Positions 11,989 through 30,558 of a stretch of DNA of 32,000 nt are shown in pieces. The position numbers and the translations under genes are program-made. The stretch spans positions 1 to 32,000 of the forward strand of contig NZ_AUBP01000029.1 in NCBI RefSeq assembly GCF_000429305.1, read 5' to 3'. Every line of letters begins with the position of its first letter. The stretch's first letter is position 1. The notes beneath the pieces were generated by a model. The model searched no databases and was not told the DNA's origin. It saw only the letters and a program-made list of their open reading frames with translations. This DNA is from Desulfovibrio inopinatus DSM 10711 (GTDB lineage: Bacteria > Desulfobacterota > Desulfovibrionia > Desulfovibrionales > Desulfovibrionaceae).

Positions 11989-12621
11989 ATGGTTCGGAAC
12001 CGAAAGCTTGGTTTGAGTTCTCTCAAAATAGTTTTGTTTTTAATGTGGCTGCTCTGGAGCGGTGTGGCTGTTGCCGGTCAAGAAGCAGAACAACAACAGT
12101 CGAAAGCAACGGATAATACCCAGTTCGCTTCACAAACCGAAGAACACGTCCCCAACCGATACGGCATGGCGCTGAGCTACGGTTCGGCTTTCAATTCTTC
12201 AGAACCATTGTATTTCGGAATGGGAACTGTATTCGCGACGTTCGATTATGAAAACATCTGGCATCATCCGGCACCCGATGGATTGCGCTTTAAAGTAGAA
12301 GCGAGCGCGGGCGGTGCAGACAAGGGCTTTCTCGCTTCCTTGTCCATGTTTGCTCAATATTTCCCCCCGTTTTTTCAATCAGATTCGGTCATGCCCTATG
12401 CTGAATTGGGTATTGGTGGCATTTACACCGATTTTCAACTGCACAACCAAGGCCTCAAAGTAAACTTTTGTCCCCAAGTGAGCATTGGGTCAGACTTTGA
12501 AACACAATCGGGACATCGATTTTTTGGAGCCATACGATTGCAACACATTTCTAATGCCAATCTTCACCCGCAGAACCGAGGCATTAATTCGACCGTTTTT
12601 CTTATAGGGATGTATTTTTAA
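11989..12621 (+). CDS. PagL-like acyloxyacyl hydrolase / lipid A 3-O-deacylase family outer-membrane protein
   Basis: The signal peptide is MVRNRKLGLSSLKIVLFLMWLLWSGVAVAG. The pattern alternates like a beta-barrel. The C-terminal catalytic-type motif is RLQHISNA (H-x-S-N), ending with an aromatic ...IGMYF. Confidence 0.7.
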   Translation: MVRNRKLGLSSLKIVLFLMWLLWSGVAVAGQEAEQQQSKATDNTQFASQTEEHVPNRYGMALSYGSAFNSSEPLYFGMGTVFATFDYENIWHHPAPDGLRFKVEASAGGADKGFLASLSMFAQYFPPFFQSDSVMPYAELGIGGIYTDFQLHNQGLKVNFCPQVSIGSDFETQSGHRFFGAIRLQHISNANLHPQNRGINSTVFLIGMYF

Positions 12622-13786
12622 GAACTTCCCCGGTTGCTTTTTCCCAATTACAGATTTTTCCCATGCCATTGATCGGCAATGTGCGTCCACTTGCAATATA
12701 TCGTGGCATTTGCTCCGGCTTGAGAATTTTTGCCAAGTCCTGTCGCAAGCGGTTGGTATCGGTTGGACTGAGACTGCTCCCATGAGCTGGGACAACAAAC
12801 GCTTTGAGGCGCTCGGAGCCGGAACTGTCGAGACGGACAGTACACAGTTTTACGAGTGGATGCTCAGCAATGATGCTCGCAATGTGCTCCGGATAGACGT
12901 TGATACCAGCGACTTGAACAGCTTTGTCTTTTCGTCCTAAAGGCAAAAAGCGACGAGAATCTTTCCACTGCACGTCATCAGGGAAAGGAAGTCGCTGTAT
13001 ACCTTGACCGGGTACATTACGAATGAGTCCAAATACATTTTCAGGATCACGTTGCCAATGGGGCATAAGATCAAATGGCTCATCGGGATGTGATCGCATT
13101 CCTAAAGCGCCGGTCTCAGATGAACCGAAGACTTCTCTCATGTGATGGAGCCCTGCGGCCTCAAGATCATAAATAACGTCTGCGGGACAGGGGCCGGTCG
13201 ACGTTATCCCCGTCACAGAGTCAGGAAAGCGGCGGCCAATACGCGCCACAGCCTTCCAAAATAAGGGAAAACCAACAACAACATCTCCTGGCCGTAATAT
13301 CTCAAAAAAATCGGTTGTAGGCACAGGAGCAAGGCATCGCGTTCCAATAGCGAGTTCTTGAGGGAGGACGAGTGCAAACATGAATCCGTAAAGATGGTAG
13401 CGTGGAACAACGGCCACGACGTTTTTGACGCCGGGGAACAACGGAATAAGCTGACGGACTTCCTGCGAAATCGCCTGTAAAGAATGATCAACCGCGACAG
13501 GTGTTCCCGTACTGCCCGATGTCACAAAACGAATGCCTACCGGATGAGCGGACAACGCCTGAACGATACATTCCGCCATCGCGTCGACTCCACCACATCG
13601 ATGCAGCTCTGCTTGCGCTTCGGTATTGAGCCGAAAAAAAGTTGCCATATCGTCAAGCAAGAGTCGCCATACGTTCATGCTCGGTTCTATTGAGGAAGCA
13701 TTCTCATCAAGACTGTACTTTATTCGAATGGTGTCCTCTATGAGAGCAATGACATGTTTTTTTTCAAATCGAAACGCGCCTGTCAT
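12602..13786 (-). CDS. ANL-superfamily AMP-dependent ligase (ApeH-like starter-activating enzyme)
   Basis: Motifs are TSGSTGTP (A3), GSSETG (A5) and GRKDKAVQVAGINVYP (A8). An ATGA overlap joins it to the upstream gene at 13783-13786. Confidence 0.8.
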   Translation of the reverse strand: MTGAFRFEKKHVIALIEDTIRIKYSLDENASSIEPSMNVWRLLLDDMATFFRLNTEAQAELHRCGGVDAMAECIVQALSAHPVGIRFVTSGSTGTPVAVDHSLQAISQEVRQLIPLFPGVKNVVAVVPRYHLYGFMFALVLPQELAIGTRCLAPVPTTDFFEILRPGDVVVGFPLFWKAVARIGRRFPDSVTGITSTGPCPADVIYDLEAAGLHHMREVFGSSETGALGMRSHPDEPFDLMPHWQRDPENVFGLIRNVPGQGIQRLPFPDDVQWKDSRRFLPLGRKDKAVQVAGINVYPEHIASIIAEHPLVKLCTVRLDSSGSERLKAFVVPAHGSSLSPTDTNRLRQDLAKILKPEQMPRYIASGRTLPINGMGKICNWEKATGEVLKNTSL

Positions 13787-14733
13787 ATTGATTTTCTTAC
13801 GGATTGAGGCAAGGAGCGAGCTCGCCAGCAGCCGTACCCGCCAAGCTGGTCTTCACACACGAAACGAGTTTGCCGCATATTGCCATCGATGTTGGGAACG
13901 GACTGTCCTTGGAGTGCCAGCGCAACAAGAATGAGATCGAAACCGACGGCTGTTGGTGACGTGCCGAGGCAAAAGCCGTTCGATTCTGTTGCTTGAGCTG
14001 AAAAAAAGATTGTATTGACGTCGTCGTCACATGTCGGAGAAGCTCCATTGCCGCAATCGATTTGGTCAATCAGGCAATATCCGGGGACGTTGCCTTCAGG
14101 AACCAGACAGAAAAACGATGCCGTATCGGCAAGCGGACCGCGAAAACGTTGTATAGCTGGAGCCGCGTTTTGTTCCTGTTCAAAACGATCAGCGATAACC
14201 GATAACAGTGGCGCGTACTCATCGACGGCTCCGAGAAGAACTCGATCAACGAGTCCGGACGCCAACCAATCATGGGCCACGAGGAGACCAGCAGCCATAG
14301 ATGTCTCAAATTGACAAAGCGTAATGCATGGCCCGTCGAGGTTACATTGTCTGGCCAGACCTGCGGCCGGCATGTTGTGAACCGATTGGGAAAACGCCAA
14401 TGGGGAAGCAAGGTCGGGGCCATACTCAATCATCGAATCCATCATGGCGAATGTGGCATGGAGTGGGCCGTATCCTGTTGTCATGACAAGTCCAGTTCTC
14501 GCGGAAACGTCTTCACCTGCATCTCGTATTGCTTGTTGAGCAGCCCACAAAGCAAGCTGTGAGAAATGATCCATACGCCGTAGATCGCGAGGCGATGCAA
14601 TCGTCGTTAAAATCGAGGTGTCCGCGACAGCAGGTTCTTGGATCGGGGTATCCGCTCCAGCAGCTTGGCACAAAGAAGCTGAATCTGTACCAAACCACCC
14701 CATAACGCCAAGACCGGTAATAACCATATTCAT
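13783..14733 (-). CDS. Ketosynthase-like partner lacking the catalytic Cys (chain-length-factor-like, ApeC-like)
   Basis: The start MNMVITGLG at 14733 is ATGA-coupled to the KS stop. The active-site stretch GPCITLCQFETSM aligns with the neighbouring KS's GPCQTVVNACASG, placing Glu where the Cys should be. It is only 316 aa and has no HxTGT/GH motifs. Confidence 0.8.
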   Translation of the reverse strand: MNMVITGLGVMGWFGTDSASLCQAAGADTPIQEPAVADTSILTTIASPRDLRRMDHFSQLALWAAQQAIRDAGEDVSARTGLVMTTGYGPLHATFAMMDSMIEYGPDLASPLAFSQSVHNMPAAGLARQCNLDGPCITLCQFETSMAAGLLVAHDWLASGLVDRVLLGAVDEYAPLLSVIADRFEQEQNAAPAIQRFRGPLADTASFFCLVPEGNVPGYCLIDQIDCGNGASPTCDDDVNTIFFSAQATESNGFCLGTSPTAVGFDLILVALALQGQSVPNIDGNMRQTRFVCEDQLGGYGCWRARSLPQSVRKSI

Positions 14734-29796: not shown

Positions 29797-29805
29797 AATA
29801 AAAGA

Positions 29806-30558
29806 CTATGTGTATAAGCCACCATTAACGGCCAAAACCTGGCCAGTAATATACGAAGCTTTTTCGGAGACAAGAAAAGAAACAGCATGGGCAACATCTT
29901 CGGGAGAACCTATACGCCGCATGGGGATCGTTTTCTGAATTTCATCGGAAGGCAGCTCTGAAAGCATTTCTGTATCAATAAACCCCGGCGCAACAGCATT
30001 AACTGTAATGTTACGTCGAGCAACCTCCACTGCAAGCGAACGGGTCGCTCCGATAATCCCAGCCTTTGCGGCGCTATAGTTGACTTGCCCTGCTACACCT
30101 GTTTGTCCTGAAATCGAAACGATGTTGACGATGCGTCCATATCGTTTTCGTATCATCCGAGGGAGAACAGCCCGTGTGACGTGATAAAACCCATTAAGAT
30201 GAACAGCTAAGACATCATTCCACTGTTCATCCGACATCATGGCAAGCAACCCATCCCGAGCAAATCCGGCGTTGTTGACAACGACAGATGGATCAAATTG
30301 TTTAACAATATCACTGAGACACTCTGTTGTTTCCTTTGCACTGGAAACATCAAACGGCACAAGATGGCATTGTTGACCGAGATCAATAATTTGCTCTCTT
30401 ACATTCTCTGCTGCATCATTTCTCGAATGATAGTTGAGCAAGATAGAGTACCCATCTTCCGCAAGCTGTAATGCGATTGACCGGCCTATACCTCTACTTG
30501 CACCGGTTATAAGAGCGAATCTCTCACTATGAAACGTATTAGGAGTATCTGGTCTCAC
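29806..30558 (-). CDS. SDR-family 3-oxoacyl-ACP reductase (FabG-like, ApeQ-like)
   Basis: The start is GTG. Motifs are ALITGASRGIGRSIA (TGxxxGIG), NNAG and the catalytic S...YSAAK. It is the first gene of the operon. Confidence 0.85.
   Translation of the reverse strand: MRPDTPNTFHSERFALITGASRGIGRSIALQLAEDGYSILLNYHSRNDAAENVREQIIDLGQQCHLVPFDVSSAKETTECLSDIVKQFDPSVVVNNAGFARDGLLAMMSDEQWNDVLAVHLNGFYHVTRAVLPRMIRKRYGRIVNIVSISGQTGVAGQVNYSAAKAGIIGATRSLAVEVARRNITVNAVAPGFIDTEMLSELPSDEIQKTIPMRRIGSPEDVAHAVSFLVSEKASYITGQVLAVNGGLYT

Follow-up and report, generated by a model that had tools for sequence, protein, structure and literature searches.

A reduced Desulfovibrionales member of a widespread aryl-polyene-type gene cluster family with a B12-binding radical SAM enzyme and a CrtI-family flavoenzyme

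Introduction

What does a strict anaerobe make with an operon that has the parts list of an aryl-polyene (APE) cluster, encodes no enzyme that would form an aromatic starter acid, and carries a radical S-adenosylmethionine (SAM) enzyme and a CrtI-like flavoenzyme among its ketosynthase genes? The question is raised by a locus of Desulfovibrio inopinatus DSM 10711, which lies in the first 32,000 nucleotides of contig NZ_AUBP01000029.1 (assembly GCF_000429305.1). This stretch is called the window here and is numbered along its forward strand. Two of its products, one of them the radical SAM enzyme, are 100% identical to NCBI proteins of D. inopinatus, which belongs to the Desulfovibrionaceae. 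A first-pass annotation, made from the letters alone, had described a minus-strand operon at 12602-30558 for a type II polyketide or fatty-acid synthase with outer-membrane export, and had regarded its probable product as different from known pigments. We compared the operon with characterised clusters and with related loci in other genomes. The operon is a reduced Desulfovibrionales member of a widespread and already known cluster family that is without a characterised product, and the comparison supports its assignment to the APE type.

Nineteen genes in one operon

Translation of the window gives 19 co-directional open reading frames (ORFs) on the minus strand between 12602 and 30558, none of which has an internal stop. 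The near-zero spacing that had been annotated is borne out, with only three spacers longer than 20 nt (25, 116, and 94 nt). On the plus strand, TCAT is found at all nine coordinates where ATGA start/stop junctions had been claimed. Three further overlaps, annotated as 8-17 nt long, are also present. They measure 8 nt between the radical SAM gene and the glycosyltransferase-acyltransferase gene, 10 nt between the CrtI-like gene and the second ketosynthase (KS) gene, KS2, and 17 nt between the first, KS1, and the CrtI-like gene, or 11 nt if the CrtI-like protein starts at ATG 28580, the start chosen by NCBI. The most likely start of the second acyl carrier protein (ACP), at 16183, creates a 23-nt overlap with the glycosyltransferase-acyltransferase gene. 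The embedding of a third active KS, the CrtI-family gene, and the B12-binding radical SAM (rSAM) gene is real, and all three are translationally coupled. The operon is confirmed as a 19-gene unit. Its gene order is repeated in dozens of loci of other genomes, which puts the arrangement far outside what chance would produce.

Domains were assigned by Pfam and NCBIfam profile searches with curated cutoffs. Every domain of the annotated parts list was recovered, and the list proved to omit a 153-aa ApeA-like lipoprotein (24182-24643). In agreement with the earlier reading, the scans of the operon products revealed no domains of an enoyl reductase, ammonia-lyase, chorismate lyase/XanB2, or methyltransferase.

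Correspondence with the ApeA-R system

As a reference for a protein-by-protein comparison, we used the APE cluster of Escherichia coli CFT073 (c1186-c1204; ApeA-R). Significant ApeA-R counterparts, mostly clear best matches, were found for 16 of the 19 operon products, so the APE signature noted in the first-pass annotation stands. The gene-content definition of Grammbitter et al. (2020) comprises apeO/R, apeE/F, apeC, apeI/P, apeQ, and apeM. In the operon we find ApeO- and ApeR-type KS, ApeE and ApeF ACPs, ApeI and ApeP together with ApeQ, and ApeM accompanied by ApeL, ApeD, and ApeJ. By homology, the assignment of the operon as an APE-type cluster is supported.

The genes are organized in two arms, between which lie the dehydratase, thioesterase, and export genes. 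The first arm reads KR-KS1-CrtI-like-KS2 (ApeR)-ACP1 (ApeF)-AT (ApeD), where KR is a ketoreductase and AT an acyltransferase. Its first gene (29806-30558; like all operon genes on the minus strand) encodes a β-ketoacyl-ACP reductase of the short-chain dehydrogenase/reductase (SDR) type, with Pfam adh_short_C2 (211 bits) and KR domains and 44% identity to E. coli ApeQ. On NCBIfam, this ApeQ-like protein scores 328 bits with FlxB (cutoff 340) and 308.6 bits with the FabG model NF004200 (cutoff 273). KS1 (28570-29796) is an extra, FabB-like ketosynthase with N- and C-terminal ketoacyl-synt domains and an intact Cys-His-His triad. Its best solved relatives are FabB-type β-ketoacyl-ACP synthases I (4xox, 288 bits; E. 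coli FabB, 260 bits), and it is 32% identical to E. coli ApeR. The following gene (27102-28580) encodes a FAD enzyme of a divergent subfamily of the CrtI/amine-oxidase family (Pfam Amino_oxidase, 86 bits). KS2 (25870-27111) is ApeR-like, with 41% identity (277 bits) to E. coli ApeR and an intact triad. Its best solved relatives are 4ewg (293 bits) and 7f27_A (267 bits), the latter of which is presumably Acinetobacter baumannii ApeR. The arm is completed by the ApeF-like ACP1 (25622-25873; PP-binding domain, 40% identity to ApeF), which shares an ATGA overlap with KS2, and by an ApeD-like, PlsC-type lysophospholipid acyltransferase (24760-25596; Pfam Acyltransferase, 72 bits; ApeD match with E = 9e-12). 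The start of the latter is ambiguous between TTG 25596, ATG 25575, and ATG 25566, and the protein has one N-terminal hydrophobic segment.

The central genes begin with the small ApeA-like lipoprotein (24182-24643), which is 37-40% identical to E. coli ApeA (E = 1e-18) and has no Pfam or NCBIfam match; its probable start at ATG 24586 gives a lipobox IVGC. An ApeP-like hotdog dehydratase follows (23629-24087; Pfam ApeP-like, 17.4 bits, below the cutoff; 26% identity to ApeP, E = 6e-7). The next product is a LolA-like periplasmic carrier (23018-23632; Pfam LolA, 70 bits; ApeL match with E = 1e-3), which on NCBIfam scores highest with the flexirubin model LolA2 (100 bits, cutoff 125). It precedes an ApeM-like exporter of the MMPL/HAE3 resistance-nodulation-division (RND) type (20643-23012), which has a weak Pfam MMPL match, partial NCBIfam HAE3 and HpnN matches, and 27% identity to ApeM (E = 1e-12). 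The lipoprotein at 20050-20646 (lipobox LAAC) occupies the ApeN/DUF3261 (LolB-like) slot by position only, having no family match in Pfam or NCBIfam and no significant similarity to ApeN. The last two genes of the central block encode an ApeI-like hotdog dehydratase (19667-20053; Pfam FabA, 24.3 bits; ApeI match with E = 3e-4) and an ApeK-like thioesterase of the 4HBT/YbgC type (19203-19670; Pfam 4HBT_2, 75 bits; 32% identity to ApeK).

The second arm reads rSAM-GT/AT (ApeJ)-ACP2 (ApeE)-KS3 (ApeO)-CLF-ligase (ApeH), where GT is a glycosyltransferase and CLF a chain-length factor. Next to the rSAM gene (17833-19206), a fusion of a family 2 glycosyltransferase (GT2) and an LpxL-type acyltransferase (16161-17840; Glycos_transf_2, 82 bits; Lip_A_acyltrans, 33.5 bits) aligns with ApeJ over its full length (29% identity, 197 bits). 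The ApeE-like ACP2 (15932-16183, start at ATG 16183) has a PP-binding domain and 42% identity to ApeE, and the ApeO-like KS3 (14730-15935), a putative elongating ketosynthase, is 35% identical to ApeO with an intact triad. The adjacent CLF-like product in the ApeC position (13783-14733) matches only the N-terminal part of ketoacyl-synt. The alignment agrees with the annotated three KS with Cys-His-His and one partner without the Cys; in this catalytically dead partner, Glu replaces the Cys and both His are absent as well. Its similarity to E. coli ApeC is borderline (E = 0.01), as is that to the solved chain 7f28_A (E = 0.0067), which is presumably ApeC. The final gene (12602-13786) encodes a short ANL adenylating ligase in the ApeH role, with 25% identity to ApeH and 235.5 bits on TIGR02372 (cutoff 334.7).

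Relative to ApeA-R of E. coli CFT073 and Xenorhabdus doucetiae, the operon has the same parts list and logic, with 25-44% identity for most products. Both lack an enoyl reductase, and in both the synthesis of the starter is not encoded in the cluster. The differences lie in a rearranged gene order, in the strictly anaerobic host, and in three additions, namely the FabB-like KS1, the CrtI-family flavoenzyme, and the TIGR04072 B12-rSAM, with a PagL-like gene adjoining. The window also lacks the methyltransferase ApeB and ApeG, both of which are outside the core APE definition; with a threshold of E <= 1e-3, tblastn matched neither of them to the window or to any of 84 related loci.

A second relationship is to the flexirubin cluster of Bacteroidota, with its tyrosine ammonia-lyase (TAL) FlxA, the SDR FlxB, and LolA2. 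The best NCBIfam models of the window KR and LolA-like protein are FlxB and LolA2, both below cutoff. In contrast to the flexirubin cluster, neither a TAL nor dialkylresorcinol genes were found in the window.

A conserved cluster family

Related loci were sought by scanning a one-genome-per-species collection with the rSAM protein. About 510 stretches encode a relative, and the best 80 of these were characterised by source. The sources are mostly sulfate- and metal-reducing Desulfobacterota of the Desulfovibrionales, Desulfuromonadales/Geobacterales, and Desulfobacterales, with some Lentisphaerae, Opitutales, and Nitrospirota metagenome-assembled genomes (MAGs). Mapping of the window proteins onto the sibling loci reveals a conserved order: KR-KS1-CrtI-like-KS2-ACP-AT-(ApeA-like)-ApeP-LolA-MMPL-(lipoprotein)-ApeI-TE-...-rSAM-GT/AT-ACP-KS-CLF, where TE is the thioesterase. 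The rSAM gene is present in all 84 sibling loci, and the CrtI-like gene is located directly upstream of the ApeR-like KS gene in 10/10 loci with enough upstream sequence. On account of this conserved architecture and position, both genes are fixed parts of one cluster family.

The remaining genes follow the same pattern. KS1 adjoins the KR gene in L008, L041, L082, and L083, and the ApeA-like lipoprotein is kept in L002, L005, L008, L050, and L083. In the ApeP- and ApeI-like slots, the siblings have genes that match PF22817 and PF22818 (ApeI-like), respectively, and the gene after MMPL in L084 matches DUF3261 and LolB. L084 also has the glycosyltransferase and acyltransferase as two separate genes. 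Among 40 long sibling loci, the thioesterase is present in 38, KS3 is conserved in 39, and the dead KS partner stands after KS3 in 37. ACP2 is 56-67% identical in sibling loci.

The conserved set also includes a gene outside the annotated boundary of 12602-30558, which was therefore drawn too narrowly. A PagL-like outer-membrane β-barrel of the lipid A 3-O-deacylase family (11989-12621, plus strand; Pfam PagL, 65 bits) is encoded convergently with the ligase gene, with a 20-nt overlap. In at least 26 sibling loci, homologs of this protein (37-50% identical) are encoded in the direction of the cluster and follow the CLF gene closely. Homology and position identify the PagL-like gene as a conserved member, so that the functional locus reaches beyond the 19 genes.

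Two subtypes can be distinguished. In the main subtype (67 of 83 sources, with most siblings of the Desulfuromonadales type among them), the TIGR04072 gene is closely preceded by genes for an extra KS/CLF pair and a B12-rSAM resembling kuste3608 of Kuenenia stuttgartiensis, and it is often followed by a third rSAM gene. In L084 (6883-12815) and most of L001-L080, this kuste3608-like rSAM is 27-30% identical, the CLF-like gene is short, and the downstream B12-rSAM is HpnJ/BchE-like. A single sibling operon thus joins relatives of genes that are split among separate clusters in Kuenenia. The second subtype consists of the window locus and the related Desulfovibrionales loci L002, L005, L008, and L050, which lack the extra KS/CLF pair and the kuste3608-like rSAM and have the ligase at the end. 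The window is the most reduced version seen, with one rSAM, no lyase, and no rSAM-SPASM protein.

Several siblings carry further genes. A kuste3343-like rSAM/SPASM protein (50-52% identical) is encoded in L005 (4026-5021), L083 (14270-15265), and L030 (3-899), and is missing from the window. In L005, a Desulfomicrobium MAG of the window subtype, and in L083, which has the same upstream order, the SPASM gene fills the slot of the lyase in the other subtype. L005 has in addition a second TIGR04072/kuste3342-like gene (18687-19895; 33-34% identity) about 1.6 kb past its ligase gene. In about 22 loci, among them L084 (17929-21362), the conserved genes after the PagL-like gene comprise a 143-aa ORF and those for a BtrH_N/DUF4872 protein and a pair of ABC transporter proteins; the window has none of them.

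The starter acid

The first-pass annotation had presented the absence of aryl-starter genes as a distinction from APE clusters. This distinction falls, as the E. coli CFT073 cluster contains neither a lyase nor UbiC. In E. coli, the 4-hydroxybenzoate for the aryl polyene is supplied by the housekeeping UbiC (PMC8253772).

On TIGR02372 (4-coumarate-CoA ligase), the 235.5 bits of the window ligase compare with 75 bits for E. coli ApeH, which places the window enzyme far nearer to the 4-coumarate ligase family than ApeH is. Judged by profile scores, its nearest family is the 4-coumarate-CoA ligases of the photoactive-yellow-protein type. Among the structures of the Protein Data Bank (PDB), benzoate and 4-chlorobenzoate CoA ligases match it weakly.

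In at least 23 sibling clusters, an ammonia-lyase/aminomutase of the MIO type is encoded between the acyltransferase or ligase gene and the ApeP-like gene. L072 combines an in-cluster lyase with a ligase of the window type, the latter after the PagL-like gene. The lyase genes are found in L084 (393-1979), L072 (1830-3404), L079 (3942-5519), and about 20 more loci of the Desulfuromonadales type, and their products are 70-97% identical among themselves. They score just under the histidine ammonia-lyase (HAL) cutoffs and contain the motif LIRSHAAG, the SH of which is typical of HAL; the nearest solved relative is the tyrosine aminomutase SgTAM. On the FlxA model, the sibling lyase reaches 473 bits, and the pairing of an MIO lyase with a ligase is shared with the flexirubin pathway.

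Since the E. coli cluster is also without starter genes, the ligase is 4-coumarate-like, and siblings encode a lyase, a changed starter is not indicated. The family is most likely primed by an aryl or heteroaryl acrylate derived from an amino acid, to judge from these homologies.

The radical SAM enzyme, the flavoenzyme, and the anammox clusters

The rSAM protein scores 534.8 bits on TIGR04072 (cutoff 360), and by this measure is classed as a full member of the family "lipid biosynthesis B12-binding/radical SAM protein" (rSAM_ladder_B12). It has an N-terminal B12-binding domain (PF02310, 76.9 bits) and a Radical_SAM domain (PF04055, 62.5 bits), and the CxxxCxxC motif (C189, C193, and C196) is invariant in 16 homologs. 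The next-best NCBIfam model is BzaD (216 bits), with BchE and AprD4 among the weaker matches, and the nearest solved structure is TsrM (93 bits). BzaD and TsrM are aromatic C-methylases. Literature searches with the family, its product name, and APE and ladderane in Desulfovibrio and anammox bacteria returned no functional study of TIGR04072, only genome-mining surveys.

The flavoenzyme is related to the CrtI group at the level of the superfamily only. It exceeds the cutoff of Amino_oxidase (86 vs 19.8 bits) and has the N-terminal GxGxxG motif, but remains below those of crtI_fam (TIGR02734; 80.8 vs 238.1 bits) and CrtD (86 vs 549.7 bits). The nearest solved structure, CrtI 4dgk, gives just 35 bits. 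Homologs carry the JGI name all-trans-retinol 13,14-reductase.

The first-pass annotation had seen a likeness to the clusters of Rattray et al. (2009), fatty-acid synthase (FAS) II clusters with genes for a SAM-radical protein, a "phytoene dehydrogenase", a "phenylacetyl-CoA ligase", and a glycosyltransferase, described from Kuenenia, Desulfotalea psychrophila, Geobacter, and Pelobacter (PMC2649909). We compared the window with six Kuenenia proteins, using the partial sequences (~400 aa each) of Table S6 in PMC4790861. The likeness holds for the rSAM protein, which has 35% identity to kuste3342 in an alignment of 404 residues (267 bits), compared with 24% (60 bits) for kuste3608 and 23% for kuste2803. 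It does not extend to the flavoenzyme, which is 21-25% identical to kuste3607 (21%, 63 bits), kuste3336 (23%), and Pantoea CrtI alike, nor to the rSAM of anammox Cluster I, which is absent.

The region kuste3335-3352 of K. stuttgartiensis and the DP1853, DP1855 region of D. psychrophila, both of the Rattray type, represent the same kind of cluster as the window, and kuste3335-3352 and the window have the kuste3342-type rSAM in common. By their function labels, the genes of kuste3335-3352 match those of the window in a glycosyltransferase, a ligase, FabG, FabZ, two ACPs, FabF with a non-canonical FabF, and a phytoene-desaturase-like protein. In contrast, the window lacks the kuste3343-type rSAM-SPASM protein and, by methyltransferase domain, the SAM methylases (kuste3338 and kuste3347), its CrtI-like protein shows no special relationship to kuste3336, and it has LolA/MMPL export genes.

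With anammox Cluster I (kuste3603-3608: amxACP, amxFabZ, amxFabF2/amxFabFmut, PDH, and B12-rSAM), the window shares types of parts. Each has a KS paired with a dead one, an ACP, a dehydratase of the hotdog fold, a B12-rSAM, and a member of the CrtI family. The anammox pair has been shown experimentally to be a KS/CLF-like heterodimer (bioRxiv 10.64898/2026.05.19.726425). The solved chains 9s5h_B and 9s5h_C were considered as this FabF2/FabFmut pair and were not relied on, the preprint giving no PDB codes. No kuste3608-type rSAM is encoded in the window, where the rSAM has 24% identity to kuste3608 and the flavoenzyme 21% to kuste3607, about as much as to Pantoea CrtI. By these identities, the module now favoured by the anammox field is not represented in the window.

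A proposed aryl-polyene-lipid pathway

In structural work on the aryl-polyene lipid (APEL), ApeE carries the aryl polyene, which ApeJ moves to a backbone of GalNAc-phosphate-glycerol, and ApeF carries another conjugated fatty acyl chain, which ApeD transfers (bioRxiv 10.1101/2020.12.19.423268). The roles of these proteins also draw on E. coli genetics (PMC8253772). Both arms have counterparts in the operon. With moderate confidence, we read it as the APEL-type pathway of a strict anaerobe, in which anchored acyl chains would be exported to the outer membrane. On the observed gene identities, Ape homology, active sites, conservation, and synteny, we build the following proposal for its substrates, the order of its steps, its two tailoring reactions, and its product.

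The operon would encode a type II polyketide synthase/FAS-like machine that forms non-reduced (polyene) acyl chains on two dedicated ACPs and joins them to a glycerolipid or sugar anchor. The substrate of the ANL ligase may be a carboxylic or acrylic acid with an aryl or heteroaryl group, with the 4-coumarate type as the likeliest. After adenylation, it would be loaded onto ACP2, where KS3 with its dead partner, the KR, and the two hotdog dehydratases would elongate the starter without enoyl reduction. KS2, assisted by the extra KS1, would build a second conjugated chain on ACP1, to be attached to a lysolipid by the PlsC-type enzyme. The GT2-LpxL fusion would attach the sugar and the ACP2-bound chain, and the thioesterase would release or edit chains. 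The LolA-like carrier, the MMPL exporter, and the lipoproteins are predicted to carry the lipid outward, and the PagL-like barrel may act on the lipid product or on lipid A in the outer membrane.

Each of the two tailoring enzymes can be tentatively assigned to one arm. Because its gene sits between KS1 and KS2, the flavoenzyme is placed on the ACP1 arm, whose saturation pattern or geometry it may change, either by a CrtD-like extension of the conjugation or by a RetSat-like saturation, as the JGI naming of its homologs would suggest. The conjugated product that the first-pass annotation had deduced from the missing enoyl reductase is plausible, but this naming makes the deduction less secure, as a retinol 13,14-reductase homolog might saturate a double bond. 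The rSAM gene lies between the thioesterase gene and the ApeJ/ApeE/ApeO/ApeC/ligase block, hence our assignment of the enzyme to the ACP2 arm. As BzaD and TsrM are its nearest characterised families, ApeB is missing from the window and all 84 siblings, and the gene is coupled to the ApeJ-like gene, the rSAM is most likely a C-methylase, predicted to act on the ACP2-bound chain or the aryl head and to replace the missing ApeB.

Several observations weigh against this reading. No family member has an observed product, and in D. psychrophila polyunsaturated hydrocarbons were found, ladderanes were not found, and pigments were not reported (PMC2649909). The window has no ApeG, its ligase falls short of the TIGR02372 cutoff, and neither the dead KS partner nor the lipoprotein encoded after MMPL resembles its E. 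coli counterpart (ApeC and ApeN, respectively) at a significant level. The lyase is absent from the window, and the HAL-like character of the siblings' lyase could mean urocanate, not 4-coumarate. B12-rSAM enzymes also perform non-methylating reactions, as illustrated by BchE and AprD4 among the weaker rSAM matches. The CrtI-like protein is distant from every characterised subfamily, and homologs of the CrtI superfamily from Kuenenia failed to desaturate phytoene (PMC4790861).

Alternative explanations

The operon could instead be a canonical APE pigment cluster to which KS1, the CrtI-like enzyme, and the rSAM are peripheral, leaving the polyene skeleton unaltered and serving, for instance, the supply of a special fatty-acyl primer, redox maintenance, or modification of the anchor lipid. 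Such a reading can draw on the full Ape core, on the PagL-like and LpxL-like domains, which suggest anchor chemistry, and on the finding that E. coli without ApeR still forms the main APE lipid, which implies partly redundant KS (PMC8253772). We nevertheless consider it unlikely, as the three genes are translationally coupled within the core and their positions are conserved across distant lineages, which favours a direct role in the synthesis of the product.

An anaerobic pathway to polyunsaturated fatty acids (PUFAs) or hydrocarbons, as proposed by Rattray et al. (2009) for the syntenic cluster of D. psychrophila, would have the CrtI-like enzyme desaturate and the rSAM modify the chain of a membrane PUFA or polyunsaturated hydrocarbon (PMC2649909). 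The hydrocarbons of that host agree with it, as does the lack of an in-cluster enzyme forming an aryl acid in the window. A further point is the likeness of KS1 to FabB, the enzyme that serves as KS when unsaturated fatty acids are made anaerobically. Other observations make this pathway quite improbable. The complete APE-type set for attachment and export (ApeD, ApeJ, ApeL, ApeM, and ApeA) would be superfluous for a bulk PUFA or hydrocarbon, and an aryl-acid-type ligase is encoded in the operon and an ammonia-lyase in its siblings. The operon also has no enoyl reductase for saturated stretches and no Ole-type genes. Long polyunsaturated hydrocarbons of the D. psychrophila kind have later been attributed, in other bacteria, to OleABCD acting on PUFA-synthase products.

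A different chemistry for the two tailoring enzymes must also be considered, as the rSAM and the flavoenzyme might together form C-C bonds in the skeleton of an ACP-bound polyene by ring closure or cross-linking. We give this only a slight probability. In the reading as a pathway to a lipid related to ladderanes or otherwise carbocyclic, the rSAM, alone or with the CrtI-like enzyme, would form cyclobutane or cyclopropane rings or a cross-link on the ACP-bound polyene, a step shared with anammox bacteria. The homology of the rSAM to kuste3342 and its NCBI label rSAM_ladder_B12 are in line with such a step, and KS/CLF, ACP, dehydratase, phytoene-desaturase-like, and B12-rSAM proteins are the anammox candidate parts too (bioRxiv 10.64898/2026.05.19.726425; PMC4790861). 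However, ladderanes were not detected in D. psychrophila (PMC2649909), and the window has neither the kuste3608/2803-type rSAM, which is present in 67 of 83 related sources, nor the kuste3343-type rSAM-SPASM protein. The CrtI-like protein is no nearer to kuste3607 or kuste3336 than to Pantoea CrtI, and the family is spread over hundreds of non-anammox species. A carbocyclic product is thus very doubtful.

A housekeeping or paralogous type II FAS with no specialised product is rejected as hardly credible: the KR does pass the FabG model NF004200 (308.6 vs 273) and KS1 and KS3 resemble FabB and FabF, but the score comparison goes against the housekeeping origin of the KS that the first-pass annotation had allowed for, with none reaching the FabF or FabB equivalog cutoffs (KS1: fabF 328 vs 493.75, FabB 342.8 vs 630; KS2 and KS3 lower), the operon has no FabD, FabH, or FabI domains (Pfam) and no acetyl-CoA carboxylase genes, and it encodes a dead KS partner along with export and attachment proteins of its own.

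Implications for the cluster family

The novelty first ascribed to the operon was overstated, given the ~510 stretches with an rSAM relative, a curated NCBIfam model, and a description of the family in 2009. The cluster family and the TIGR04072 model were already known, and the window adds one member, a minimal variant, with nothing new in kind. The new points are the gene-by-gene mapping onto the APEL pathway, the in-cluster lyase of the siblings, the conserved PagL-like gene, and the identification of kuste3342, not kuste3608, as the shared enzyme.

The APEL-type reading gives the family a frame, that of an APE-lipid pathway with two acyl arms, a sugar-lipid anchor, and Lol/MMPL export, to which radical-SAM and flavin tailoring would be added. 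At least one enzyme, kuste3342, is common to this family and to the kuste3335-3352 genes, which have long figured among the ladderane candidates. In surveys of biosynthetic gene clusters in anoxic waters, clusters called "ladderane" by antiSMASH were found to be expressed in non-anammox phyla, including Desulfobacterota (PMC9902471), and such clusters of unknown function in non-anammox phyla were also surveyed elsewhere (PMC11968836). Automatic "ladderane" calls on clusters of this kind in non-anammox genomes probably mark APE-like envelope lipids.

The chemistry of TIGR04072 is open to study in cultivable organisms, for which the minimal version of D. inopinatus could serve as a simple test case. 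Were skeletal C-C chemistry to prove true, sulfate and metal reducers would have unrecognised carbocyclic or branched polyene lipids in the outer membrane, and cultivable relatives amenable to genetics would allow tests of the kuste3342 step in the synthesis of anammox lipids.

Flanking regions

On the side of the PagL-like gene, a 225-aa ORF (orf225; 11281-11958, plus strand) is located 5' of this gene and co-directional with it, at a distance of 30 nt. It has about five predicted hydrophobic segments, no Pfam match, and no homolog in any sibling locus. It falls in the size class of ApeG, yet has no sequence similarity to it. The far flank (437-10295) encodes an IS1595-like transposase fragment (437-949, plus), a PocR-PAS histidine kinase (1136-3949, plus), a sigma factor of the extracytoplasmic function (ECF) type (4487-5035, plus), a class I SAM methyltransferase (5098-6039, plus), and a U32 peptidase (8655-10295, minus), none of which is kept near the sibling clusters. 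The methyltransferase was considered as a substitute for ApeB and rejected, since its gene neighbours that of the ECF sigma factor on the opposite strand, 6.5 kb from the operon, its sequence does not resemble ApeB, and the surroundings of sibling clusters do not conserve it.

Upstream of the first operon gene, a weak candidate promoter of the sigma-70 type is found at 30716-30744 on the minus strand (TTTGCA-17-TATAAT, 10/12 matches). As the total of promoter-like sites in the region is not above the shuffled expectation, it stays a mere candidate. A tRNA-Ser(UGA) gene (31275-31364, minus) is located about 700 nt upstream of the first gene, and a terminator-like hairpin (30935-30913, minus) lies between the two. 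The GC content in 1-kb windows is 0.39-0.45 at and just beyond both ends of the operon and about 0.47-0.56 across most of it, with an internal dip to 0.39-0.44 at 24001-26000.

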